A DNA stretch of 64,000 bases from a virus: the IMG/VR virus record IMGVR_UViG_3300030737_000007, positions 27,895-91,894 of that record; one strand, given 5' to 3'. Under the pieces are notes generated by a model. That model saw nothing but the letters and a program-made list of their open reading frames with translations, searched no databases and was not told the origin of the DNA. A program made the position numbers and the translations under genes. Position 1 is the stretch's first letter. Each line of letters starts with the position of its first letter. Shown one piece after another: positions 776 to 12,779 of the stretch.

Positions 776-1110
776 TAGACCGTCCACCAGAGGAACAAGC
801 GCGTTCCCGTCGCAGTAAGTCCAGTAACGGCGAAGTCCCGCCAGGTCAGGTAGTCACCTGAATCCGGGTTGTCTACGTATAGGATGGTGTTCGCCGCGGA
901 CGAACCGGGCACAACCATCGGGGGGAACAGCGTAGAGCTATCAGACGGAGCCGTGATCGTAACGGTGCCCGCGGTCGAAGCCCCACCGGGCCCGACGGCC
1001 AGCGTCAGCTTTTGGACACGGATGCCTTGGAGTCGTTCACCTGACGTAGTACGATACGAAGTAATATCCGTATCAATAATTAGGGGTAAACTGTTGAGAG
1101 AATTGGCCAT
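775..1110 (-). CDS. hypothetical protein, possibly virion-associated
   Basis: 111-aa Thr/Gly/Ala-rich beta-type ORF in a tightly packed operon. Confidence 0.7.
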   Translation of the reverse strand: MANSLNSLPLIIDTDITSYRTTSGERLQGIRVQKLTLAVGPGGASTAGTVTITAPSDSSTLFPPMVVPGSSAANTILYVDNPDSGDYLTWRDFAVTGLTATGTRLFLWWTV

Positions 1111-1338
1111 TTAGTTCTCCGGAAAGTATTTGCCGAGCACTCCGGACAACCGGTTGGCTACAGCCTTGTAATGAATTTTGATTCTCGGGTCGTCCGTAAT
1201 CCGCTCGACCTCCCTGCAATCCTCTGCGTACTCCTCCAGTTCAAACCGGATAGCTTCGAGGGTCAGGTACTGGCCGATCGCCAGGATAATCAGGAACGCG
1301 AGCCCAACGCCGAACACGGCAACTAGCAGGAATTCCAT
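1111..1338 (-). CDS. small membrane protein
   Basis: N-terminal hydrophobic helix (FLLVAVFGVGLAFLIILAIG); GAGGAG RBS upstream. Confidence 0.7.
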   Translation of the reverse strand: MEFLLVAVFGVGLAFLIILAIGQYLTLEAIRFELEEYAEDCREVERITDDPRIKIHYKAVANRLSGVLGKYFPEN

Positions 1339-1389
1339 TGGGACTCCTCGGGGGTGTTTCCACCCCCTAAGGTTCTGATTCTAAATGGA

Positions 1390-2025
1390 TTAGAGCCGGT
1401 TAATGACGAATTCCGTGACCACGATCGAGGTCGTAGCAGCGGAAGCGATCGTGAACGAGGGGATGAAGTTCAGATCCGTCAGCCCAACCGCCGTAGCGTT
1501 CGCCGTGGTGCCCGCTGCCACCGAGGCTCCGTTGAGGTAGGCCGTGGAGGTCGTGTAGGCGAGGATCTTCGTAACCGAATCCCAAACGAACTGCGCCTTC
1601 AGCCAGTAGTTGATCGATTGCGAGGCCGTCAGACCAGCGGTACCGGTACCCGTAACAAGCAGGGTGCAGCCAGTGCCGAGCGTGCCGAGAGTATAGCCAC
1701 CCGCTGTGCCCGCGCCAGAGCCCGCCGAAAACGAGGAGTTCTTAGCGTTATACAGGCTAACCTGGAAATTGGTGGTGGCCGTCGAGGTTACCTTGAGGGC
1801 GAGCGAGACTTCGAACGGGTGTCCGTCGAACACGCTGCCCGCGATGTCGGCGGGAATGCCAACGAAAAGACCCGTGGGCAAAGAGCTGGTGGACAACGGG
1901 AACTCGGGGGAAGGGAGCCCCGGATAAACTCCGGAAGCGGAAGGAGCGAGGAGCGGGGTATTGGAAGTGACCGCAACCGTCTGCGGGAAATTCTGGATAC
2001 CGAACGAGGAGTCTTGACGTGCCAT
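1390..2025 (-). CDS. hypothetical virion structural protein
   Basis: Start re-placed to MARQDSS behind AAGGAAA; Ser/Thr/Ala/Gly-rich. Confidence 0.65.
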   Translation of the reverse strand: MARQDSSFGIQNFPQTVAVTSNTPLLAPSASGVYPGLPSPEFPLSTSSLPTGLFVGIPADIAGSVFDGHPFEVSLALKVTSTATTNFQVSLYNAKNSSFSAGSGAGTAGGYTLGTLGTGCTLLVTGTGTAGLTASQSINYWLKAQFVWDSVTKILAYTTSTAYLNGASVAAGTTANATAVGLTDLNFIPSFTIASAATTSIVVTEFVINRL

Positions 2026-2093
2026 GATTTGTTGTTTCCTTTGAGGGGTGAGTTGTGTTGCGTCAGGGGCGTAAACCGACCCCACAAATACTG

Positions 2094-2438
2094 CTACCAC
2101 AGACCGTTGAACGCGCCTTTAGCAGCTAAATCTTTCATCCGGTTCTGAAAAAGACGACCGTGTTCCCGACCTGTCTTGACCTTATCCCATTGTTCGACGT
2201 GGACAAGTTCGTGGATTACAGTCATGATCGTGACGGACCGGTATCGACGAAGAGCCCAGTCTAGTTCTATCAGGAACTTGCGTTTTCCTTTTGGGACAGT
2301 TCCCAGAACCGATCGGGTCCGCGCCATTATGTGCGAACTCGGAAATCCTTTTCGAACCCACTTGATCTTCACGTTCTTAAGCCTGCCGCGGAAATACCGA
2401 CTGTTGGCTAGGTGATAAATCTGTTCGAGCTGCGTCAC
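2094..2438 (-). CDS. SprT-like zinc metalloprotease
   Basis: N..YF.G.L, IHELVH (HExxH) and HGRLF..RM motifs; GTGA overlap with the upstream gene. Confidence 0.8.
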   Translation of the reverse strand: MTQLEQIYHLANSRYFRGRLKNVKIKWVRKGFPSSHIMARTRSVLGTVPKGKRKFLIELDWALRRYRSVTIMTVIHELVHVEQWDKVKTGREHGRLFQNRMKDLAAKGAFNGLW

Positions 2439-2767
2439 CAAAGATCCTTGAGCGCCCCCAGGTTGGCGAGCCGTTTCATTTCGTCCTGGAATATCTTTCC
2501 ATGCCCACACCGTACCCGGGCCGGAGCGTTCCGGAGTTTACAGTGCGCCATCTCGTGAACCAAAAGCAAGAGAGAGTAGTTGTCCAGTTTCAGACGTTTG
2601 ATCAGAGGGTGAATATGGATTCGGTAGGTTCCGTCTTCGTACGAGATAAACTCCGCGGCGTGCCCAGACGAAACATCAGCGTACCCTACGAATATATCGG
2701 GCAACGAGTTTCCGAAGTACTTTCGGTTGAAAACCCTGTATTGCTGCTTAAGCTCCCGGTTGGTCAC
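2435..2767 (-). CDS. SprT-like zinc metalloprotease
   Basis: FNRKYFGNSLP, VHEMAH, HGKIFQDEM motifs. Confidence 0.85.
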   Translation of the reverse strand: MTNRELKQQYRVFNRKYFGNSLPDIFVGYADVSSGHAAEFISYEDGTYRIHIHPLIKRLKLDNYSLLLLVHEMAHCKLRNAPARVRCGHGKIFQDEMKRLANLGALKDLW

Positions 2768-3215
2768 TGTTCCAAAGCCCCACCTCGAATTGTCTTCGTC
2801 TAGTAAGGCCGTCCAGAACTACCAACTCCCCGTTGACCCGGGCTTTATTGTACTCCAGGATCTTGAGGGGAACTTCTACATACCCGCCTTGGTTGAGTCC
2901 AGTTTCGGAAATAACGTGCTGGAGGGTACCGGCACCCAGGTTGAAGGTAAAGCTGGAGAGTGCGTCGAACTTATTCTGCGTCAGCGGCACTCGGACAAAC
3001 TCGTTGATGTACCGCTCGGATACGTGGACAAGGTCTGCTGCGAAGAGCGAGAGAGCCTGCTGGATCGTAATCGGCTTTTCCGTACCGTTTAGCGGACCGA
3101 GGTGAAGGAGATGACCCACCCCCACCGTTGCGTTTCCGGAAGCGTCGTTGTATGGAACCAGTTTGCAGCTCTCGAAGGAGAAGATACGGGCCGCGGTCTG
3201 GGAGGAGGTTGTCAT
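2748..3215 (-). CDS. phage lysozyme / endolysin (GH24)
   Basis: FES.KLVPYNDASGNATVGVGH catalytic E-x8-D-x5-T pattern; QNKFDALSSFTFNLG; GLTRRRQFE. Confidence 0.92.
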   Translation of the reverse strand: MTTSSQTAARIFSFESCKLVPYNDASGNATVGVGHLLHLGPLNGTEKPITIQQALSLFAADLVHVSERYINEFVRVPLTQNKFDALSSFTFNLGAGTLQHVISETGLNQGGYVEVPLKILEYNKARVNGELVVLDGLTRRRQFEVGLWNSDQPGA

Positions 3216-3700
3216 GGGTGGTACGACTGGGGTCCGTTTACAATTTGGAAACCGGAAATAAAATGACTTTGGTAATTTAAATAAATTACTTTAGTATTTA
3301 TGAAAGGAAAAGACCCTCGGGGTGACCAGGTCACGTAGCGGTACCGGCGGCGGCCAAGGGGGTAAGGCCCGCCCCAGCCGAAACTGATTTTAGGGTCCCC
3401 TACTCTAGCCAGCCAGCGACTCGATCTAACTCACTCAGTCTAAACGAGTTAGCACGCTGTAACATGACTGGCTTTCGACTCTGATACACTGTTGCGAGTC
3501 GGGCATCTAGTGTATTCAGCGACTCACCAAAGGGAAATTGACACAATCGCGTCACAATACCGCGTCAAGTGATTGATTCTAAAGGCTGTTGACTAATCGT
3601 AGGATTAGTCTCGATGTCGTGTTGTCCATTATTCGGATATTTTCGCGGTAAAAACACACTGAAAAGTTCCACGTAACCTATTCGTCGGGCGTGTTCAGCA
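3216..3700. other. non-coding region, possible packaging/terminus or late-promoter region
   Basis: About 480 bp with no ORF; AT-rich block 3250-3310, G-rich block 3340-3400, several inverted repeats, IHF-consensus match AATCAATCACTTG on the minus strand near 3566-3578. Confidence 0.35.
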
Positions 3701-3701
3701 A

Positions 3702-3914
3702 TTAGGCGTGTTCGCGGTACGTGAACGGCTGGAGCAGCGTGTCGCCAGTGTAGAACGGAGAGAACGGGAACATCTCCGCTAGTTTATGCCTTGCTTCGCT
3801 TACACACGAGTCGCATACTTCTATTGTCTTTCCCCGTTCGATCTCTACCAGCTTATAGGCTATGTCATGCTTAGGGCATTGGGCGAGCATTGTATCCTTT
3901 GGGCGCGAGTCCAT
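3702..3914 (-). CDS. small Cys-containing hypothetical protein
   Basis: CPKH...CDSC; its ATG is supplied by a motif-A copy. Confidence 0.55.
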   Translation of the reverse strand: MDSRPKDTMLAQCPKHDIAYKLVEIERGKTIEVCDSCVSEARHKLAEMFPFSPFYTGDTLLQPFTYREHA

Positions 3915-4082
3915 TATCCGGACAAGGTTTCAGTAATCAGGTCGGTTTCAGCATTCGGTGAACCAAGGCAGACGGGTGAAACTAACTCCCATCGCTCAAC
4001 TTGAATGCTCTATCTCTACCCTTGGACTGTCTTACACTCTCTACAGTCTTATTACATCCGTTGCGGGCAAGCTGTTTCGTAC

Positions 4083-4256
4083 TTAGCAGGCTGGTCCGTA
4101 TTCTCGGAACGTTGGGCGCGCCTCAATCTTTAGTCGAAACGCCAGCGATTCACTAGGCATGTACTCTGTGACGTTGTTCGCTTGCATCCAGCGCGCGAGC
4201 TCATCTAGGCTGTTGCAGTCTTGTGCGCGTTCAGGCAGTTTGCGCGCGTCTAGCAC
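4083..4256 (-). CDS. hypothetical protein
   Basis: GTG start overlapping the end of the upstream ORF. Confidence 0.45.
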   Translation of the reverse strand: MLDARKLPERAQDCNSLDELARWMQANNVTEYMPSESLAFRLKIEARPTFREYGPAC

Positions 4257-4405
4257 GATAACCCTATGTCCAGACCGTCGCCGCATCTGTCCAGCCTATA
4301 GCGAATCTCTTTGATCCATTCCGCATACCATTGCTCTATCGCGCGGTCAAGTTTGCATCTCTTGAGCGTTGCGCCGTGCCGGTATTTGTCCCTGTTGCGC
4401 GCCAT
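4250..4405 (-). CDS. hypothetical 51-aa protein
   Basis: Manual translation MARNRDKYRHGATLKRCKLDRAIEQWYAEWIKEIRYRLDRCGDGLDIGLSC*. Confidence 0.45.
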   Translation of the reverse strand: MARNRDKYRHGATLKRCKLDRAIEQWYAEWIKEIRYRLDRCGDGLDIGLSC

Positions 4406-4451
4406 AGTTGTCCGGATAATGGAAAATCGTGCTACGTGTCGCTTGTTTACC

Positions 4452-4643
4452 CTATGCCCTTGTACCTAACACGCTGTTTGGGAGTGTTGCGCGCGGTTTA
4501 CGCTTCGCCCTGGGGCGCGGCTTTATCTTGCGTATCTGCGTGAGTTGCGCGCTCGCCGTTAGCTTTTGATCCATGCTCGCATTGGGGTCCTCACAGATGC
4601 GGATCAAGACTTGCTCTAATCTTTGGGCGATAGTCTTTGGCAT
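4452..4643 (-). CDS. small basic hypothetical protein
   Basis: 63-aa ORF with helical N-terminus and Lys/Arg-rich tail. Confidence 0.5.
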   Translation of the reverse strand: MPKTIAQRLEQVLIRICEDPNASMDQKLTASAQLTQIRKIKPRPRAKRKPRATLPNSVLGTRA

Positions 4644-4932
4644 GGGTTAGCGGTTGGGCTTGGCGTGCGGTTTTCCATTATCTGGAAAGTGGTTCTAAGC
4701 GGTTCCCTAAGTCAAGTATATAATCATTACTATACTTGCTTTAGAACCATCAACATAAGGTTTGGGGCAGAGTGTTTCCCAGTGGTTAGGGCGCTAGCGC
4801 TTTGAGCGTTGAAAGCCATAGAGGATAGGCGCGCATTCTGCCCCGTCCGTAAACCGTAAAAAGGTCTACATAGTTATTAGACGTTCAAATGAGACGAAAA
4901 TCACAACCCATCCGAAAAATAATTGAAAATAA

Positions 4933-5346
4933 TTACTTTTGGGCTTGACGTTTGGCCTGATACTCGTCTAACATGTACCGCCTATCCGCTGGCATTTCCC
5001 ACCTGTTGAGGACGATAAACCCGAACTTGCCCATTCGATTGAGCGGCGGCTTATGCGTATGAATGAGATACGCCTCTGTCCACATCCTGGTTAGATCGTT
5101 CGGGATCTCGATACACGACACATGCGTCACTCCGTTGTCTATAAATTCCTGCATTCGGTTGTGGTACAGCAGCCTGTGTCGCGGCTGGACCGATGTTCCA
5201 ACATATAGCAGCCGGTTTGCCGCCCAAACTGTGTATACAGCGGGCCGTTTCGGAGCGGTACGGGCCGCCGCAAACCATTCATTCTCTTTGGGCGTGCCTG
5301 TCTTATATGGATAATTGGGTGGGAGCTGAAAATCGTCTGAATACAT
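4933..5346 (-). CDS. GIY-YIG nuclease family protein
   Basis: AVY...LLYVG.S...RHRL..H and E.YLI...KPPLN motifs. Confidence 0.8.
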   Translation of the reverse strand: MYSDDFQLPPNYPYKTGTPKENEWFAAARTAPKRPAVYTVWAANRLLYVGTSVQPRHRLLYHNRMQEFIDNGVTHVSCIEIPNDLTRMWTEAYLIHTHKPPLNRMGKFGFIVLNRWEMPADRRYMLDEYQAKRQAQK

Positions 5347-5386
5347 GCTCCCATTATATCACATGCAATTTATTTCAGAAAAACAC

Positions 5387-5415
5387 TTGACAATTTATTC
5401 GGTGGGGAATAATGT
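5387..5415 (+). promoter_or_regulatory. sigma70-type early promoter
   Basis: TTGACA-17 nt-TAATGT upstream of the first plus-strand gene. Confidence 0.55.
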
Positions 5416-5452
5416 GAGTTTGTTGGTTCAAAGCAAACGGAGGAAACACCCC

Positions 5453-5617
5453 ATGAAAGACGCACAACAGGCTTTCGAGGAAGCGATCGCAGCCGGTAGA
5501 CTGTCACTCAACCCAGCCGCCACCAACTATGTCGGGCATTACATGTACATGGGCCCGAACGCAGCCGGAACACTCGACACGTTCAAACATCGTCTTACCC
5601 GGCAGTACATCGCCTAA
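5453..5617 (+). CDS. hypothetical early protein
   Basis: GGAGG RBS; MKDAQQAFEEAIAAGRLS...YMYMG. Confidence 0.75.
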   Translation: MKDAQQAFEEAIAAGRLSLNPAATNYVGHYMYMGPNAAGTLDTFKHRLTRQYIA

Positions 5618-5649
5618 CCGAAACGTCTTTACAACCTGGGAGGTAGAAA

Positions 5650-5823
5650 GTGCAAACCCTAAAGAAACTAACACTTACACACGTATTGCTCGCCGTCATT
5701 GCTGTGATGCTCGGCCTAACCTATCACCGGCTGTTTCTCATGGATCAAGACATAGAGAACAACGTAGAGTTTTCACAACAGATTGCAACAGCGTTCGGCG
5801 CGCTTCCGAGCTCGGCGCGCTAG
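5650..5823 (+). CDS. small membrane protein
   Basis: GGAGG RBS then GTG; MQTLKKLTLTHVLLAVIAVMLGLTYHRL... with one transmembrane helix. Confidence 0.65.
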   Translation: MQTLKKLTLTHVLLAVIAVMLGLTYHRLFLMDQDIENNVEFSQQIATAFGALPSSAR

Positions 5824-5892
5824 TTCTCAGTTTGAGAATTCCAGATAATGGACATAACCGCGCGGCGCGTATCGTCGCAGAATGAGGAACTT

Positions 5893-6075
5893 ATGGAAGA
5901 TCCAAGGGACGAAATTTACCGCGAAATGGCTCGGGAAGAGTACGGCTCCGACGAATGCGAGATAGATGATAACGCAGTGGTCAGCTACGGCGAGGATGGG
6001 GCGTTCGTCGCGGCTTGGGTTTGGGTTCGCTACCCCGAGAAAAGCGAAACAGAGGACGAAGACGAAGCCGCCTGA
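5893..6075 (+). CDS. small acidic hypothetical protein
   Basis: GAGG RBS; ...GAFVAAWVWV...; stop codon lies inside the hammerhead core. Confidence 0.75.
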   Translation: MEDPRDEIYREMAREEYGSDECEIDDNAVVSYGEDGAFVAAWVWVRYPEKSETEDEDEAA

Positions 6076-6122
6076 TGAGCCGGTGAGATCCCGGCGAAAC
6101 GCTCGAACCTGGGCGTAGCGGT
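6067..6122 (+). ncRNA. type I hammerhead ribozyme
   Basis: Stem I GCCGC(6067-71)/GCGGT(6118-22); core CTGATGA 6072-78; stem II GCCGG/CCGGC; GAAA 6096-99; stem III CGCTC/GGGCG; GUA cleavage triplet 6115-17. Confidence 0.88.
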
Positions 6123-6129
6123 ACGCAAC

Positions 6130-6158
6130 TTGACAACCTAACCCCTAGCCTGTAGTAT
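6130..6158 (+). promoter_or_regulatory. sigma70-type promoter
   Basis: TTGACA-17 nt-TAGTAT. Confidence 0.75.
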
Positions 6159-6183
6159 GGTCTAAATCTGAAAGTGAGGCGCG

Positions 6184-6282
6184 ATGCCTAAGCTAACCCC
6201 AACTGAGCGCGGATACATGAAGACGGAGTTTATCGAGTTCGTTTGTCTTATGGCGCTCTTGATATTCATTCTTTGGATCTGA
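6184..6282 (+). CDS. 32-aa hydrophobic membrane peptide
   Basis: GAGG RBS; MPKLTPTERGYMKTEFIEFVCLMALLIFILWI*. Confidence 0.6.
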   Translation: MPKLTPTERGYMKTEFIEFVCLMALLIFILWI

Positions 6283-6308
6283 ACCGAGACCCGGCGGTAT
6301 CCGGGTTA

Positions 6309-6375
6309 GCTCCCCTACAACCTGGCCGCCAAGTGGCGGGGAGCGGGCAACGGGTTTATCCCGGCTAATAGGTTG
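6309..6375 (+). ncRNA. HDV-like (nested double pseudoknot) ribozyme 1
   Basis: P1 GCTCCCC/GGGGAGC; P2 CAACCTG/TAGGTTG; P3 GCC/GGC with 7-nt L3 GCCAAGT; P1.1 CC/GG; P4 CGGG/CCCG; J4/2 GCTAA with putative catalytic C6365. Confidence 0.85.
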
Positions 6376-6391
6376 AGAAAGAGAGGGTTAC

Positions 6392-6649
6392 ATGAGAAAA
6401 TATCCTGAACACGAAAAACAAGCGAAGGTGCTCGACCAGAGTCAAACAATTGGCTCGTTCCTAGATAACGGCGGTCTGGGTGATGGTGTAGTTTTAGCCA
6501 AATGGGACGAACGTCCGGGGAGGGATAATCTGTACCCCATCCACATGGATATCAACAAAATACTCGCCGCTTATTTTGAGATCGACCTCAACAAGATCGA
6601 AAAGGAAAAGCAGCAGATGCTGAAAGATCTCCGAACGGCTGCCGCATGA
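6392..6649 (+). CDS. hypothetical protein
   Basis: 85-aa ORF with RBS directly after the ribozyme. Confidence 0.75.
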   Translation: MRKYPEHEKQAKVLDQSQTIGSFLDNGGLGDGVVLAKWDERPGRDNLYPIHMDINKILAAYFEIDLNKIEKEKQQMLKDLRTAAA

Positions 6650-6822
6650 AACGCCATGATCTAATGCGCTACACCTACGGCGATATCTCTTACCTGGTAA
6701 TAGTCCAGCGGGCAACGCTCGACGAGTTCGGGACTGTACTAGTCAAGCGGGATGACGACGGGCACTATTTCTTCGCCACGCCCGAACGGTTGGAGGCTGT
6801 AATTGCTGATCCCAGCGTTTAG
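6646..6822 (+). CDS. hypothetical protein
   Basis: ATGA overlap; MKRHDLMRYTYGDISYLVIVQRATLDEFGTVLVKRDDDGHYFFATPERLEAVIADPSV*. Confidence 0.6.
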   Translation: MKRHDLMRYTYGDISYLVIVQRATLDEFGTVLVKRDDDGHYFFATPERLEAVIADPSV

Positions 6823-6999
6823 CCGCTCCCCCAGCCGTTTACCACCAAAGGCCGCGACCAGGTTTAGGGCCGCGATTCTACCCGCTGGACGCAAAACAGT
6901 AAGCCGCACGGCGCGAACGGATTGGACCTGTGTAGCCTGTATGAAGGGTAAACACGGGTGCGTAAGTCGCAAATGTAACTGTGTCCGGTGTAATCTAGC

Positions 7000-7042
7000 T
7001 TGACGGGCACGAAACCGCAGCGTAGTATTCCATTATTTGGAA
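7000..7042 (+). promoter_or_regulatory. sigma70-type promoter with a motif-A variant over the start site
   Basis: TTGACG-17 nt-TAGTAT followed by TTCCATTATTTGGAA (7028-7042). Confidence 0.7.
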
Positions 7043-7054
7043 AGAGAGGGCCAA

Positions 7055-7273
7055 ATGACTAAGAAGGACGCCGTAGCAACAGCAGTCAAGCGAGTAGACG
7101 AGACTGGGTTTACCTTCCTCGTTTTGCGCCGAGGATATGGCTATCGAGCGCAAATCTCTTCCTACCCAGTTGCGCGAGGCTGGAAGATCGCCGAACAGAT
7201 TGGTGTCGGCAACGTACAGAACTTCCGCGATGACCTACAGGAATTCAACCCGATTTGTGATGTCGTTTCTTAG
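7055..7273 (+). CDS. hypothetical protein
   Basis: GAGAGGG RBS, ATG at 7055. Confidence 0.7.
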   Translation: MTKKDAVATAVKRVDETGFTFLVLRRGYGYRAQISSYPVARGWKIAEQIGVGNVQNFRDDLQEFNPICDVVS

Positions 7274-7282
7274 GAGGAACCG

Positions 7283-7471
7283 ATGCCGAGATACAAAGTA
7301 GCTTTAGAAGTCGAGATCGAAGCCGAAAGCGCAGAGGCCGCGTTTGCTTACGTCCGGTCTTACGCCACGATCACAGACGAGTACGCGGCCCAACACGGTA
7401 CGCAATCGCAGTTTGAGTTCTATGTGTTGCCGCCAGAAGAGCTGGCCGAGGGAGAATTGGTAATTCAGTAA
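7283..7471 (+). CDS. hypothetical protein
   Basis: GGAGG RBS; EVEIEAESAEAA pattern common in phage small proteins. Confidence 0.7.
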   Translation: MPRYKVALEVEIEAESAEAAFAYVRSYATITDEYAAQHGTQSQFEFYVLPPEELAEGELVIQ

Positions 7472-7496
7472 CACGCCCGCCCGAGCGTATCGGGTA

Positions 7497-7546
7497 GTCC
7501 GCCACAAACCAGCCTCCACGCGGCGCGGACGGGTAAAGCTAATGGG
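7497..7546 (+). ncRNA. minimal HDV-like ribozyme 2 (P4-less)
   Basis: P1 GTCCGC/GCGGAC; P3 GCC/GGC with L3 TCCACGC (HDV has UCCUCGC); P1.1 CC/GG; J4/2 GCTAA; P2 only CCA/TGG (short). Confidence 0.7.
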
Positions 7547-7555
7547 CGAAAGGGA

Positions 7556-7798
7556 GTGTTTATGCAATGCAAGATATGCAACACCAGGACGGAAGCGCCT
7601 TACGCTGTAGCGACGAGAGTCAACAGCAAGGAGCTTTCCATCAAAAGGTATAACCGCACGGCGCAGCCGGTCAAAGGCTCGGTGTTACTATGTGGCGTGC
7701 GTTGCTCGGGCTCGGCGCTTGAACGGTTCCTACAGTCGGGCTCTCTTGAAATGCCAAACCAGCAAGGGAGGATTCCAGATAATGGACGAACAATTTGA
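7556..7798 (+). CDS. hypothetical Zn-finger-like protein
   Basis: CKIC...LCGVRC. Confidence 0.6.
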   Translation: MFMQCKICNTRTEAPYAVATRVNSKELSIKRYNRTAQPVKGSVLLCGVRCSGSALERFLQSGSLEMPNQQGRIPDNGRTI

Positions 7799-7976
7799 CC
7801 CCGAGAAAGTAGATCGCTGGGAGCCCCAATGGGACTATGACTTCGCGGGCATGGGAATAGACCCCGATGGCGGTTTCGTAGCCGTAGAAGATTACGACAA
7901 ACTCCTACAAGTCCACATCCAGACTCTAATCGACTTCAACGCCTGCACCCTAAAGCTCGCCGCAATGAAAGGATGA
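7782..7976 (+). CDS. hypothetical protein
   Basis: GGAGG RBS; ATG inside motif A. Confidence 0.65.
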   Translation: MDEQFDPEKVDRWEPQWDYDFAGMGIDPDGGFVAVEDYDKLLQVHIQTLIDFNACTLKLAAMKG

Positions 7977-7977
7977 C

Positions 7978-8211
7978 ATGACCGACCTAGCCGAACGCAG
8001 CACACGCAACCGCTTCGGGACCTCCGAGGTACTGTTCACCAAGGGCAAGAACCGGAAGATAATTGTCGAGGCCCGCCCGCGGTGTGCTATCATAAAGTTC
8101 TCAGGGTTACACGCAGAGTATGAGGTTCCGTGGAGCGCGATCGCGAGCCTGGCAGTAAAGGCAGACGTGGCGGCTAAGCGGGCGGCGAAGAAAGCGAAGG
8201 TGGCGGCGTGA
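7978..8211 (+). CDS. hypothetical basic protein
   Basis: ORF track; coupled to neighbours. Confidence 0.65.
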   Translation: MTDLAERSTRNRFGTSEVLFTKGKNRKIIVEARPRCAIIKFSGLHAEYEVPWSAIASLAVKADVAAKRAAKKAKVAA

Positions 8212-8396
8212 TTGAAGTAACAACCAGCAAACAGTGGGCTTGGTGCAAAACCTGTGACGGCCTGATTGTGCGGGAGTCAGCAGATCGCATTTGGAGCCAC
8301 GCCCGATCAAACAACCATTGCCACAATTTGGTCGTAGAGCCTTTCATTTCAGCCACTGAGATAGAAATGGCTTCCTTGCTCCGAAATTCCAGATAA
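8208..8396 (+). CDS. hypothetical Zn-finger-like protein
   Basis: CKTC...H.....H; stop codon inside motif A. Confidence 0.6.
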   Translation: MIEVTTSKQWAWCKTCDGLIVRESADRIWSHARSNNHCHNLVVEPFISATEIEMASLLRNSR

Positions 8397-8402
8397 TGGA
8401 AA

Positions 8403-8597
8403 TCAACCCGCCGCAACAGCAGACTGAACCACAACACTAGGAAATATCACCAAGTTGGACTTCGGGGTCGCCTCTAACAAGGCGGCCCCTGTTGTTGCTA
8501 CCCAGTCCTCGATGGCTTGCTCTATAATGGTTTCGACCGACAGTCCGGTCCGCACGGCGTAATCCTCGACAAGTTCTAGGTAGGTCATAGTGAGCAA
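8403..8597 (-). CDS. small putative ribbon-helix-helix-like regulator
   Basis: YAVRTGLSVETIIEQAIEDW resembles CopG/RHH helices; divergent from 8744. Confidence 0.45.
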   Translation of the reverse strand: MLTMTYLELVEDYAVRTGLSVETIIEQAIEDWVATTGAALLEATPKSNLVIFPSVVVQSAVAAG

Positions 8598-8743
8598 TAT
8601 AGCTCATGCCCATCCGACATAGCAAGCATAAATCTGTGGAAATCAAATAATTCTGTAAAATTGTTTCCATTTCCGTACAACTGTGCCGCTATGCGGTGTA
8701 TCATACAGACATCCGCCCTACTAGGGCATACAGGAGATTTACA

Positions 8744-9418
8744 ATGGCGAAGCAAGCAATCCACACACCAGACCTCGCCGAGCTGCAATCGTTAGAGGGC
8801 TGGGCCCAACTAGATCCAGATGAGCGAGAGACAATCGTAACCAAGGCTGAGGACTTGGCCCGAGCACTTCACCAGGAGGGCCAATCCAAACTCAGCATCG
8901 GCTCCCACTTGGTGGTGATCCGTGGTATACTCCACCCTAAGAAGATGTGGACTGGGTTCCTCCGGAAGAGTTTCCACATGAGCGTGGCTACGGCGTTCCG
9001 GTATATCGCCGAGCATGAGACAGTTTCGAAGGCGCTGCCCGCCAACGTGATGAGCATTGCCATGAGCCGCGGGTATAAGATCAAGCCCCAGGCGATCGCG
9101 AAGAACCCACCGCCCAAGACGACGGATACGAAAGAGATTGTCCATTATCTGGACAAACTGGTCCGTATCCCAAAGTCGAAGGTGATCGTGGTCGAGGCGC
9201 TGGACACCGACCTGATGCTGAAGGAATGCCTGAACTTCTGCAAGACTCGGTTCGCGCGCGTGCCAAGTGGCCGCGCGAAGACTAACTTCACCCGGGCGCT
9301 GCTGGGTATGCTGCTCACCACTTTTGGAATGTCAGACCAGACGCTTGCTCCCGTAGCCGTCCCCGCTTTCTTTGCGGCAAAGCGGGGACGCCCGCTTGGG
9401 TCGCGTAAGGCTGCCTGA
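8744..9418 (+). CDS. DUF3102-like DNA-binding protein with C-terminal AT-hook-like motif
   Basis: IGSHL...W..FL...F.MS..TA.RY pattern; KRGRP near the C-terminus; AGGAG RBS. Confidence 0.6.
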   Translation: MAKQAIHTPDLAELQSLEGWAQLDPDERETIVTKAEDLARALHQEGQSKLSIGSHLVVIRGILHPKKMWTGFLRKSFHMSVATAFRYIAEHETVSKALPANVMSIAMSRGYKIKPQAIAKNPPPKTTDTKEIVHYLDKLVRIPKSKVIVVEALDTDLMLKECLNFCKTRFARVPSGRAKTNFTRALLGMLLTTFGMSDQTLAPVAVPAFFAAKRGRPLGSRKAA

Positions 9419-9422
9419 CTGA

Positions 9423-9450
9423 GGGGGCTGGGGTTCGCCTCAGCCCTTTC
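9423..9450 (+). terminator. intrinsic terminator
   Basis: GGGCTGGGG-TTCG-CCTCAGCCC hairpin then TTT. Confidence 0.65.
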
Positions 9451-9477
9451 TCAATTTGAGAATTGTGGAAATAAGAG

Positions 9478-9505
9478 TTGACTTTTTGCGGGGCGGTGGT
9501 ATTCT
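9478..9505 (+). promoter_or_regulatory. sigma70-type promoter
   Basis: TTGACT-16 nt-TATTCT with TGG extension; motif B just upstream. Confidence 0.55.
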
Positions 9506-9512
9506 ATGAGGC

Positions 9513-9734
9513 ATGGGAGCCTTTGATCTCTACGGACAGTACTACGAGAATGCCCGCGACGCTCACAACGCCGAAGATGCGCAGTGCGCAGCGATTGACG
9601 CTCAGGTTGCGGCGGAACGGGTGAACCAGTCAGAGTCGTATCTCTACAGTTTGTTGGAAGGCCAGCACTGGGAGATTGTACAACTGACTGAGCGTGTTGC
9701 CGCCTTAGAAGCGAAACTATCGGAGACCAAATGA
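9513..9734 (+). CDS. hypothetical protein
   Basis: ORF track; coiled-coil C-terminus. Confidence 0.65.
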   Translation: MGAFDLYGQYYENARDAHNAEDAQCAAIDAQVAAERVNQSESYLYSLLEGQHWEIVQLTERVAALEAKLSETK

Positions 9735-9922
9735 GCCTATACAGCCAAGCACGGGCCTGTGGCGTCAACCCCGACGCGGATGCGGATCCAGAGGATTATG
9801 ATCGGTACGCACATCACTATGTCTGCAACGCTTGCGCCGCAACCGAAGACTTTGCCCAGTATCGCGCCAACTATGTCTGCCCGTGGTGCGGCGAGGGAGT
9901 AATGGAGCTAGACACGCTATGA
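9731..9922 (+). CDS. Zn-ribbon hypothetical protein
   Basis: CNAC...CPWC. Confidence 0.65.
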   Translation: MSLYSQARACGVNPDADADPEDYDRYAHHYVCNACAATEDFAQYRANYVCPWCGEGVMELDTL

Positions 9923-10101
9923 CGCCCCGACAGAAAACCATGAATGAGATTTGCGACATTCTCCACGAGCAGGTCAAGGCCGACGGCATGGGTATGGACC
10001 GAGAGAGGTTCATAAAACAGCACCGACGCTTGAACCACAAGTGGTTACTGGTTGCGCTAGAGAACTTGAAGAACCCGATCAAAGATGAGGTTTCCGGATA
10101 A
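9919..10101 (+). CDS. hypothetical protein
   Basis: ATGA overlap upstream; TAATG overlap with the integrase inside motif A. Confidence 0.6.
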   Translation: MTPRQKTMNEICDILHEQVKADGMGMDRERFIKQHRRLNHKWLLVALENLKNPIKDEVSG

Positions 10102-11237
10102 TGGAAAACGTCCTCAAGCGCGGCAACCAGTACCACTACTCAGCCACAGTCGGCAACGGCAGAAGGCTCCGGGCCTCGCTCGGCACGTCATGTCCGAAGT
10201 CGGCCAAGCGCCTAGCCCACCGTATCGGTCTAGCCATAGCCTCGGGGCCGGACAGTGAGTTGTGGCCTACCTTACGCCTCACCCTGCCCACCCAGAGTTA
10301 CCGCACCATAGCCACGGGTATGAGCGTAACCGCGCCGCCCGACTTGGCAGAGTTCGAATCCCTGTTCAAAGAGAAGCTGGACCGGCGGGAGAAGTTGGGC
10401 GAGATCACGGCCTCGACTCACAGTCTGTACGAGGCCGCCGCCGACAGCTTTTTCAACTGGCTAATCGGCCAGAAGATCGGCCAGATCTCAGAGGTAACCC
10501 CCTCACTGGTAGAAAAGTACCAGGTCTGGCGCAAGGAAAGAGTGTCCGAGCGGCCCCAGTCTAAAAACGGGCGCTCCCTGCTGACGGACAACACGGTGCT
10601 GGCCGCTATCTTCGAACTCGCCCAGGAGGAAAGGCTGATCCAGAAGTCTCCGTTCAAAGGCCGATTCAGAGCGTACGGTGCGCCCAAGGGTGCTGAGCCG
10701 TTTACACCGGAGGAGATGGCAAAGCTGGAGGCTGCGACCACAGACGGCGATCGCCTCGCATTCAAGATCTTCAAGTGGACAGGTATGCGTGGGTCAGATG
10801 TTGCTGATCTTACTTGGGCGGCGCTTGACCACATCGGCAGGACACTGCGTTGGGAGACCCGGAAGCGCGGCGTTTGGGTTACCATCCCGATATCCGAAGC
10901 TCTTGCTGATCAGTTGGGTGCGCGTTGGTACAACTCAACTGTAGTAGTGGAGGACAAGGTGCTTTCTGGCATGACGCGCCCGAAGCTATACCGCATGATC
11001 AAAGAACTTGGCATCCGGGCTGGCGTGCCCAACTGTCATCCCCACAGATTTCGTGACACTTTAGCCGTGACATTACTTGAGCGAGGTGCTACAATTTACG
11101 ACGTAGCCAAAATGCTGGGCGACTCCGTTACGACCGTAGAGAAACACTATGCACCGTTTACCGGTCGATTGCAGGAACGGGTCCGCGGGATTTTAGATTC
11201 CAGCCGGGAGTTTATGGAATTCCGGACCACGGGATAG
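10101..11237 (+). CDS. int: tyrosine recombinase / integrase
   Basis: TGMRGSD (R), TRK (K), HPHRFRDT (HxxR), LGD in place of LGH, KHY (Y). Confidence 0.92.
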   Translation: MENVLKRGNQYHYSATVGNGRRLRASLGTSCPKSAKRLAHRIGLAIASGPDSELWPTLRLTLPTQSYRTIATGMSVTAPPDLAEFESLFKEKLDRREKLGEITASTHSLYEAAADSFFNWLIGQKIGQISEVTPSLVEKYQVWRKERVSERPQSKNGRSLLTDNTVLAAIFELAQEERLIQKSPFKGRFRAYGAPKGAEPFTPEEMAKLEAATTDGDRLAFKIFKWTGMRGSDVADLTWAALDHIGRTLRWETRKRGVWVTIPISEALADQLGARWYNSTVVVEDKVLSGMTRPKLYRMIKELGIRAGVPNCHPHRFRDTLAVTLLERGATIYDVAKMLGDSVTTVEKHYAPFTGRLQERVRGILDSSREFMEFRTTG

Positions 11238-11316
11238 TCGTACCTGCAATTTCTGTTGGAGCGCATCGACCGCCTCACCAGTAGCAAGCCCTGAGTAGCC
11301 CTTGGAGGAGAGAGAG

Positions 11317-11514
11317 ATGGCAAAGCAATACGTAGTTTCAGAGGAAGAGTTCATGTCTCTCATTGAGAGCCTAGAACTCCACGCCCTGCGTAAGAACAAC
11401 TTCATCCGCGACGACATGGGCAAGCCGCCAACGTTTGAAGAGATTCATCGCACGTATCACTACGTGGTTGTTCGATGGGTTCAGGCTATGGGCTTCGGCG
11501 GAGTCAGAAGGTAG
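11317..11514 (+). CDS. cassette mini-gene 1
   Basis: MAKQYVVSEEEF...; repeat-associated RBS. Confidence 0.7.
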   Translation: MAKQYVVSEEEFMSLIESLELHALRKNNFIRDDMGKPPTFEEIHRTYHYVVVRWVQAMGFGGVRR

Positions 11515-11556
11515 CAGGCTCTGAGTAGCCCCTTAGAAGAGAGGAAAGAGAGAGAG

Positions 11557-11757
11557 ATGAAAGATAAGCGACCGTTCGCGCCGAAGAGATTGTGGATTCT
11601 GATGCACAGAGTATGTGGTGGCACCCAATGGGCGGCGTCGATGGACTATGCATTTCCTTGGACCACGAAAGCAGCAGCGATGAGGAAGATCAAGTCGCTC
11701 GGAGAAAAGGGAAAGAACTACAGGGCGTTCAGATTCGATTGCTCCACTACTGAGTAG
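11557..11757 (+). CDS. cassette mini-gene 2
   Basis: Stop TAG is part of the repeat. Confidence 0.7.
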   Translation: MKDKRPFAPKRLWILMHRVCGGTQWAASMDYAFPWTTKAAAMRKIKSLGEKGKNYRAFRFDCSTTE

Positions 11758-11780
11758 CCCCAGAAGAGAGGAAGAGAGAT

Positions 11781-11987
11781 ATGGCGTTCAAGGTTTTTCA
11801 CAGGCGCAAAAGCGCGAGCCGGGCCGCTTTCACCATCCGCCAAATCATAAAGAATGTGGAGATTTGGCATCGCATGGAAGCCGGAAGATGTGTAGGAGAT
11901 TTTGTGCCAAAGACCGACTATGACAAGTTGTTGGAAACATGCCGCAGTTTACTGGAAGTCAACGAAGCTTTACGCGACGCTGAGTAG
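11781..11987 (+). CDS. cassette mini-gene 3
   Basis: Stop TAG is part of the repeat. Confidence 0.7.
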   Translation: MAFKVFHRRKSASRAAFTIRQIIKNVEIWHRMEAGRCVGDFVPKTDYDKLLETCRSLLEVNEALRDAE

Positions 11988-12017
11988 CCCTTACCCCAGC
12001 ACCAGAAGGAGAGAGAG

Positions 12018-12200
12018 ATGAAATATCCGAAGCGCAAAGTCCTGTCGATGAGATTCTATCGCGTCCGATGCAAGCTTGGTTACGGCTCAGTGATGATGCA
12101 GTTGGAGTGTGGTCACGCGCAGGGCAGGAAGCAGAGCGAGGCCAAGAATGTCGTCGCAGGAGTATCCACCGTCACATGCAAGCAATGTGACCCCCTGTAG
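12018..12200 (+). CDS. cassette mini-gene 4 (Cys/His-containing)
   Basis: LECGH...CKQC. Confidence 0.7.
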   Translation: MKYPKRKVLSMRFYRVRCKLGYGSVMMQLECGHAQGRKQSEAKNVVAGVSTVTCKQCDPL

Positions 12201-12239
12201 CAAAGAACTGATGCGCTGCTGCGAAACGAGGAGATACCG

Positions 12240-12377
12240 ATGAGTCAGGAAGAAGGGATGAAACTGGCGTTCTGCTGCCGCTGTGGAATGCCGATGCTGC
12301 GCTCCGGTGACGAACCACTACACCACGTTAGGCTTCTACACGGACTTTTGTGTTGGCTGAACTATTCAAGAGACTGA
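12240..12377 (+). CDS. cassette mini-gene 5
   Basis: Manual translation MSQEEGMKLAFCCRCGMPMLRSGDEPLHHVRLLHGLLCWLNYSRD*; stop inside the second repeat family. Confidence 0.6.
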   Translation: MSQEEGMKLAFCCRCGMPMLRSGDEPLHHVRLLHGLLCWLNYSRD

Positions 12378-12407
12378 TGCGCTGCTGCGCTGAAATGAGG
12401 AAATGAA

Positions 12408-12605
12408 ATGAGCGAAGCGAGAGAGCCAATGATTGGAACTGGCCCATGTTATGCGCCTCGGCAGTGCTGCTTTTGCGGAGCCGTCCACGAGAAGGGTGCC
12501 GTGATGGGCTATGCGGGAGAGATTCAATGCGGAGTCTGCGGCAAGGGTGGCAACGGAGAACCTGACGAGCCGGGGATGTTTTACAAGCGCGTAGGGATGG
12601 CCTAA
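12408..12605 (+). CDS. cassette mini-gene 6 (Zn-ribbon-like)
   Basis: CCFCG...CGVCG. Confidence 0.65.
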   Translation: MSEAREPMIGTGPCYAPRQCCFCGAVHEKGAVMGYAGEIQCGVCGKGGNGEPDEPGMFYKRVGMA

Positions 12606-12779
12606 ATGAGCAACCTTAGCGAAATGGATGAACCCTGCAAGTGCGGCCATCCTCGACATGTCCACGTAATTCGCATGATAAACACCAAGTGTGACTTTGG
12701 CTGCGCACACGGCTTATGGAGCGACAAGGAATGTCCATGCGTGAAGTTCGTTTCCGTCGCACCACCTGAAGCAAAGTAG
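12606..12779 (+). CDS. cassette mini-gene 7 (Cys/His-rich)
   Basis: Manual translation MSNLSEMDEPCKCGHPRHVH...ECPCVKF...*. Confidence 0.65.
   Translation: MSNLSEMDEPCKCGHPRHVHVIRMINTKCDFGCAHGLWSDKECPCVKFVSVAPPEAK

Follow-up and report, generated by a model that had tools for sequence, protein, structure and literature searches.

In viroid and satellite RNAs, the active form of the hammerhead ribozyme is metastable and stands against a more stable, inactive extended pairing, and this alternative fold serves the circular replicating RNA. In synthetic insulators of the RiboJ type, which are placed between a promoter and a gene, self-cleavage removes the upstream RNA and defines the 5' end of the message. 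The closest described relatives of the element reported here are the type I hammerheads of bacteria and phages (Rfam clan CL00010; PMC3088659; reviewed in de la Pena 2017, PMC6155905). Clustered hammerheads that flank prophage genes cleave both in vitro and in vivo, and Perreault et al. 2011 proposed that they process long transcripts into gene-length mRNAs (PMC3088659). In the prophage clusters of Agrobacterium tumefaciens (ardA), Azorhizobium caulinodans and Clostridium scindens, ribozymes on the same strand bracket small genes that have no fixed identity, and processing of a polycistronic message has been proposed for them as well (PMC3088659). The role of the thousands of genomic phage hammerheads is still an open question (PMC6765202, PMC6155905).

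The locus described here lies in a 92-kb IMG/VR virus record. Its final 64 kb are the stretch of DNA analysed (64,000 nucleotides, hereafter the window), and coordinates refer to this window. The phage sequence is present in 24 peat metagenome DNA runs and in no listed RNA run, and contigs from four of these runs show no differences over the covered parts of 5600-6700. The hammerhead in the window closely resembles the type I hammerheads of clan CL00010, with an identical core, three helices and an open stem I, and it likewise has a long, stable stem III and a location between phage genes. It has GUA as cleavage triplet where GUC is found in 66 of 75 relatives, and it falls below the threshold of the curated Rfam models while scoring 60 bits on a model built from phage sequences. 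Unlike the hammerheads of the prophage clusters, it has an HDV-like ribozyme (RF02682) as its partner, and a promoter-like site lies between the two. As with RiboJ, cleavage would remove the upstream context and leave a downstream message with a defined 5' end. Unlike RiboJ, the element is natural and is located upstream of the promoter-like site, so it would trim read-through transcripts only. The reading that we favor, with a probability of roughly 0.6, is that this is a genuine and probably active hammerhead that processes an early transcript at a gene boundary, and that the placement of a stop codon within its core is a common form of compaction.

A complete type I hammerhead

The sequence-only reading had recognized the conserved core nucleotides and the three stems of a type I hammerhead. 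All are indeed present, with stems of 5, 5 and 6 bp and a matching local minimum-free-energy fold. The parts of the element, read from the sequence, are as follows.

6067-6122, + strand: type I hammerhead ribozyme (sequence, fold, descriptor search and covariance model R1)
6067-6071 (GCCGC) with 6118-6122 (GCGGU), + strand: stem I, 5 bp
6072-6078, + strand: catalytic core CUGAUGA
6079-6083 (GCCGG) with 6091-6095 (CCGGC), + strand: stem II, 5 bp
6084-6090, + strand: loop II, UGAGAUC
6096-6099, + strand: core GAAA
6100-6105 with 6110-6115, + strand: stem III, 6 bp, with a 4-nt loop
6116 and 6117, + strand: U6116 and A6117, with the predicted cut between A6117 and G6118

Judged by the core criteria of Perreault et al. 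2011, the positions C3 U4 G5 A6 N7 G8 A9, G12 A13 A14 A15.1, U16.1 and H17 carry no substitution, the pairs that border the core are standard (G6079-C6095, C6071-G6118 and A6099-U6116), and the three helices are free of multiple mispairs. The hammerhead junction is the exact minimum-free-energy fold of the isolated segment 6060-6130. A descriptor search of the 92-kb phage genome returned a single type I hammerhead, the one at 6067-6122, and 300 Markov shuffles of that genome yielded no comparable motif even with the stem limits relaxed to 4/3/3 bp, which excludes a chance origin. The analysis thus confirms that 6067-6122 is a genuine, complete type I hammerhead. The element is real yet largely ordinary, and alone it adds little.

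Membership in a phage subfamily

Rfam made no hammerhead call in this region, either at its gathering threshold or at E-value thresholds, and its only hammerhead match was a partial one to RF00008 (type III) at 20.9 bits versus a gathering score of 48.5. Viral contigs scanned with a pattern of the core and this particular stem II gave 22 loci, 17 of type I and 5 of type III, and in all 22 of them the strands of stems I and III, which lie outside the search pattern, are complementary. Ten type I hammerheads of other viral contigs went into covariance model R1, from which the window copy was left out. The model scores 6066-6123 at 60 bits (E 6e-14), a full-length and ungapped match that is the only one in the genome and mid-range for the family.

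Across 96 sources, R1 found 75 copies. Because stem III varies in length, MAFFT failed to align the 3' halves, and a model-based alignment was used instead. In this alignment, which is itself fitted to the model, 97.4% of cells are paired, versus 63% in shuffles and 30-45% with slid partners. Compensatory changes occur at 15 of 17 pairs (73 distinct sequences), covariation support that applies at the family level only. The window copy also has the family-conserved unpaired A6066 before stem I, the family's loop II motif UGAGAUY and, after stem I, A6123, which is common to 46 of the 75 members. Together, A6066, loop II and A6123 may form a tertiary contact between stem I and loop II, which is needed for fast cleavage at cellular magnesium. 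By its sequence, the window copy fits as an ordinary member within a large subfamily of phage type I hammerheads.

A BLAST search with this region found nothing similar in the phage collection, and no orthologous copies of the 6067-6122 locus were found among relatives of the neighbouring genes. In viral and metagenome contigs, relatives of the upstream, downstream and 240-aa genes are 32-54% identical or absent, and not one of them is accompanied by a hammerhead or an HDV-like ribozyme. That homologues of the two flanking genes lack ribozymes in other phages and metagenomes indicates that the ribozymes are not tied to these genes.

Some contigs carry arrays with roughly one type I hammerhead after each small gene. 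Contig L032 has 10 in about 7 kb (5983-12634), contig L128 has 6 (888-5371), and contig L017 (1341-6896) has 6 in the survey of stop codons given below and 8 model matches.

A stop codon within the core

The upstream ORF ends GCC GCC TGA, and its stop at 6073-6075 forms U4, G5 and A6 of the core, as had been proposed from the sequence. A second in-frame TGA follows directly at 6076-6078. Given the known size of its footprint, a terminating ribosome would extend over stem I and the core as far as the 5' strand of stem II, in agreement with the earlier suggestion that such a ribosome would sit on stem I and the core.

The frequency of this layout was surveyed in other phages. A second, more general pattern scan of viral contigs gave at least 120 further stretches, and the listed matches of both scans, with the window left out, supplied 114 distinct type I hammerheads from 75 contigs whose upstream ORF is at least 50 aa long. 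Among these listed matches, the upstream stop is placed as follows.

Stop is the UGA of CUGAUGA: 29 of 114 (25%)
Stop 0-3 nt before stem I: 41 of 114
Stop overlapping stem I: 18 of 114
Stop beyond the core: 8 of 114
Stop 4-15 nt before stem I: 8 of 114
Stop more than 15 nt before stem I: 10 of 114

In addition to the hammerheads that use the core stop, a further 59 of 114 (52%) of the matches listed have a stop that is flush with stem I (within 3 nt) or overlaps it. Among the ORFs that enter the core in these matches, 29 stop at its UGA and 8 run on (binomial p 2.5e-8, with a chance rate of one in three for stopping at the core UGA). In phages, therefore, type I hammerheads directly abut the gene before them, and the built-in UGA-UGA is a frequent means to this end. 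A stop within the core is not a special arrangement, since about a quarter of phage type I hammerheads have it among the matches listed. The layout looks like a space-saving packing solution that makes use of the built-in UGA-UGA. The distance from the cut to the next start codon has a median of 28 nt among the matches listed and is 66 nt in the window.

No paper on a stop codon inside the CUGAUGA of natural hammerheads was found in the literature searched. The survey provides a testable rule: about three quarters of type I phage hammerheads (among the matches listed) abut or overlap the upstream stop, and about one quarter use the core UGA.

Flanking genes and promoter-like sequences

The genes and the promoter-like motif next to the hammerhead are listed below.

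5893-6075 (or from 5848), + strand: upstream early gene (ORF list; PHROG 6739, E 8e-9)
6130-6158, + strand: sigma-70-like promoter motif TTGACA-17-TAGTAT, 10 of 12 positions matched
6184-6282, + strand: putative gene for a 32-aa protein with a hydrophobic C-terminus, between the two ribozymes
6392-6649, + strand: downstream early gene, 85 aa (PHROG 21869, E 3e-5)

The upstream gene codes for 60 aa from the ATG at 5893, which has a GAGG ribosome-binding site, or for 75 aa from the ATG at 5848. Its protein shares a GAFVAAWVWV motif with five tblastn relatives in viral contigs; conservation stops short of the last 13 residues. To judge from these sequence data, the gene is real. The GAFVAAWVWV motif (5995-6024 in the window; contigs L002-L006) is a module found in phage proteins of 48 to 393 aa (PHROG 6739). 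The 32-aa ORF has no family match. Divergent from the early operon, on the minus strand at 4933-5346, is a 137-aa ORF that matches the PHROG endonuclease family phrog_16880 (E 1e-8).

Seven bases separate the end of stem I from the promoter-like site at 6130, as expected from the earlier observation of a promoter that starts 8 nt past stem I. With up to 2 mismatches allowed, TTGACA-N17-TAGTAT occurs 8 times in the window versus 2.07 expected, always on the + strand (3269, 5387, 6130, 7000, 14321, 37240, 41590 and 55963). These eight sites are candidate phage promoters for a sigma-70-type host polymerase. No terminator-like sites were found on the + strand in 5000-7500.

A neighbouring HDV-like ribozyme

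A second ribozyme lies 190 nt downstream of the hammerhead and 18 nt upstream of the start of the next gene. Its parts, read from the sequence except where noted, are as follows.

6288-6307, + strand: GC-rich hairpin ending one base before the HDV-like cut (fold of 6118-6308)
6309-6375, + strand: HDV-like self-cleaving ribozyme (Rfam RF02682, 45 bits versus a gathering score of 44)
6309-6315 with 6338-6344, + strand: P1
6318-6323 with 6370-6375, + strand: P2
6325-6327 with 6335-6337, + strand: P3
6329-6330 with 6345-6346, + strand: P1.1
6351-6354 with 6360-6363, + strand: P4
6365, + strand: catalytic C6365, with the GCUAA segment

The nested double pseudoknot is complete, with the catalytic C in J4/2, and the cut is predicted 5' of G6309. 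As in the prophage clusters of Perreault et al. 2011 (PMC3088659), the ribozymes share a strand at gene boundaries: both the hammerhead and the HDV-like ribozyme are on the + strand and between ORFs. Between the two predicted cuts is a 191-nt piece with both the promoter-like site and the 32-aa ORF.

A predicted fold that competes with the hammerhead

Folding predictions that take in the upstream coding sequence give a different structure. The segment that pairs with the hammerhead is the following.

5984-6016, + strand: possible 'anti-ribozyme' segment of 33 nt, codons for YGEDGAFVAAW, complementary to 6065-6078 and 6099-6119

This segment forms 29 predicted pairs with 6065-6078 and 6099-6119, with probabilities of 0.64-1.0, most of them above 0.9. 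The pairing occupies the stem I strand, GAUGA, stem III, the cleavage site and the start of stem I, and leaves stem II intact. In the long-context equilibrium folds, stems I and III are missing and the probability of stem I is about 0. Two inverted repeats, I1 and I2, were found in the region, and I1 has the same arms as the pairing of 5984-6016. The situation is reminiscent of viroid and satellite-RNA hammerheads in that the ribozyme would compete with a more stable pairing. It differs from that of viroids in that the competitor is an mRNA coding sequence, on which ribosomes could act.

At boundary settings with about 77, 117 and 170 nt of upstream context (short, middle and long), the competing fold is favored over the hammerhead, with an energy gap of -8.7, -13.6 and -9.8 kcal/mol; in the runs with synonymous recodings and natural segments, the longest setting gave -9.5 rather than -9.8 kcal/mol. 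Among the matches listed, this gap ranks 1 of 134-138 family members at every setting, and it is also the first among 21 members with GC-rich context. The fractions of null sequences that reach the gap at the short, middle and long settings are given below.

Dinucleotide shuffles: 0.047, 0.010 and 0.027
Synonymous recodings (phage codon usage): 0.03, 0 of 400 and 0.005
Natural segments of the same phage: 0.078, 0.008 and 0.03

Overall, p is about 0.008-0.08 across the nulls used, a modest result and one obtained once the pattern was already known. Some of the complementarity is inevitable, given that the Phe-Val codons of a conserved protein motif lie opposite the fixed GAUGA.

The family as a whole shows the opposite tendency. 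The natural 70 nt upstream of 138 type I hammerheads (the matches listed, L014-L155) compete less than dinucleotide shuffles do, with a mean gap of -1.45 versus -2.09 kcal/mol (Wilcoxon 7e-7), which suggests selection against misfolding. A family-wide lock by upstream sequence was rejected on these grounds. Nor was there a significant link between hammerheads with the stop in the core and stronger competing folds (p 0.11). The window copy is an exception to this avoidance of misfolding, which makes it a handy test case for translational control of a natural hammerhead.

Possible functions of the hammerhead

Under the favored reading, the hammerhead would be transcribed as the tail of a first early unit that starts from the promoter-like site near 5387 and continues through three small genes, and it would cut itself after A6117. 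The upstream gene would run through stem I and take the core UGA-UGA as its stop. Its message would retain the stop codon and carry the folded ribozyme at its 3' end, which would bear a 2',3'-cyclic phosphate and may be protected, and the downstream RNA would begin at G6118 with a 5'-hydroxyl. The cut would separate the first unit from the one that the promoter-like site at 6130 would drive. Along with cleavage by the HDV-like ribozyme at 6309, it would split read-through early transcripts into single-gene pieces, with a possible effect on gene expression. Because the long-context equilibrium fold is not the hammerhead, constitutive cleavage would depend on co-transcriptional folding or on ribosomes. 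The adjacent promoter-like site is real, but the family shows no enrichment of promoters directly behind the ribozyme (8 of the 141 matches listed, versus 4% of random windows). The proposal that the element acts as a terminator substitute or insulator is therefore at most a local one.

The competing fold could instead have a purpose. The codons at 5984-6016 (and 6028-6039) might lock the ribozyme off in untranslated RNA until reading ribosomes melt the lock, as they would be expected to do because the lock lies entirely within translated sequence. The last ribosome would terminate on the core UGA, its exit would let the ribozyme fold and cut, and only translated messages would be severed. The 29 pairs of high probability, the inverted repeats, the first rank of the gap and the few null sequences that reach it are consistent with such a lock, as is the position of the window copy as a clear outlier in a family that avoids this kind of competition. 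However, the statistics are modest and post hoc, and some complementarity is imposed by the Phe-Val codons. Moreover, the hammerhead does not return at equilibrium when individual 30-nt footprints are blocked (stem I probability at most 0.14), a stop in the core is not generally accompanied by stronger competitors, and equilibrium folds take no account of co-transcriptional kinetics. We consider a lock of this kind unlikely, although it deserves attention. The full arrangement, in which the 33-nt segment and the stop in the core together let the hammerhead fold and cut only after the gene is read, is a conjecture that we hold loosely and would not expect to be correct. If true, it would be a natural ribozyme switch with the translating ribosome as its ligand. 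Such locking by the coding sequence and unlocking by ribosomes is the sole hint of a possible coupling to translation in these predicted folds, and it is the reverse of the ribosome-on-core idea that came from the sequence-only reading.

The same folds would also be expected of an idle hammerhead, a recently acquired or decaying copy that is natively trapped for good in the competing structure. Stems I and III are missing from every long-context equilibrium fold, and no orthologous copies were found. A decaying copy should have core or stem defects, whereas here the core bases and the three stems are all intact, as are the loop and flanking bases specific to the family, and the score is mid-range for the family, so we regard this explanation as quite improbable. 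Both ribozyme classes leave 5'-OH and 2',3'-cyclic phosphate ends, and the geometry of the two predicted cuts raises the question of whether they serve to release the RNA 6118-6308 with its 32-aa ORF, whose ends a host RtcB-type ligase could circularize or otherwise join. The hairpin at 6288-6307 would close the 3' end of this piece. However, its fold is no more stable than shuffles (z 0.28), with only 4 pairs to bring the ends together, and transcripts started at the promoter-like site inside it would be without the hammerhead end. No gene for RtcB or an RNA ligase was found in the phage, which weakens the case further, and a search by Perreault et al. 2011 for circular or spliced RNAs from clustered hammerheads was negative (PMC3088659). 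A released or circular RNA is thus highly improbable as the purpose of the pair, and processing of the early transcript at the gene boundary is the reading that we retain.

Other structured RNAs of the phage

The phage is unusually rich in catalytic RNAs. At 7481-7546 of the window, a hairpin (7481-7495) is followed by a minimal HDV-like fold that lacks P4 and directly precedes an ORF with its start near 7562. As read from the sequence, this fold has a P1 of GUCCGC/GCGGAC, an L3 of UCCACGC, a GCUAA segment and a 3-bp P2; Rfam gave no call for it at E up to 1. In the part of the genome that precedes the window, the minus strand has three matches to group I introns, two above the Rfam threshold and a third, weaker one (27.1 bits), at 14204-14392 of L012 (equivalent to 204-392 of L013) and at 1113-1280 and 1408-1635 of L013. 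The minus strand of this part also carries two tRNA genes above the Rfam threshold, at 7926-7997 and 10219-10291 of L012.
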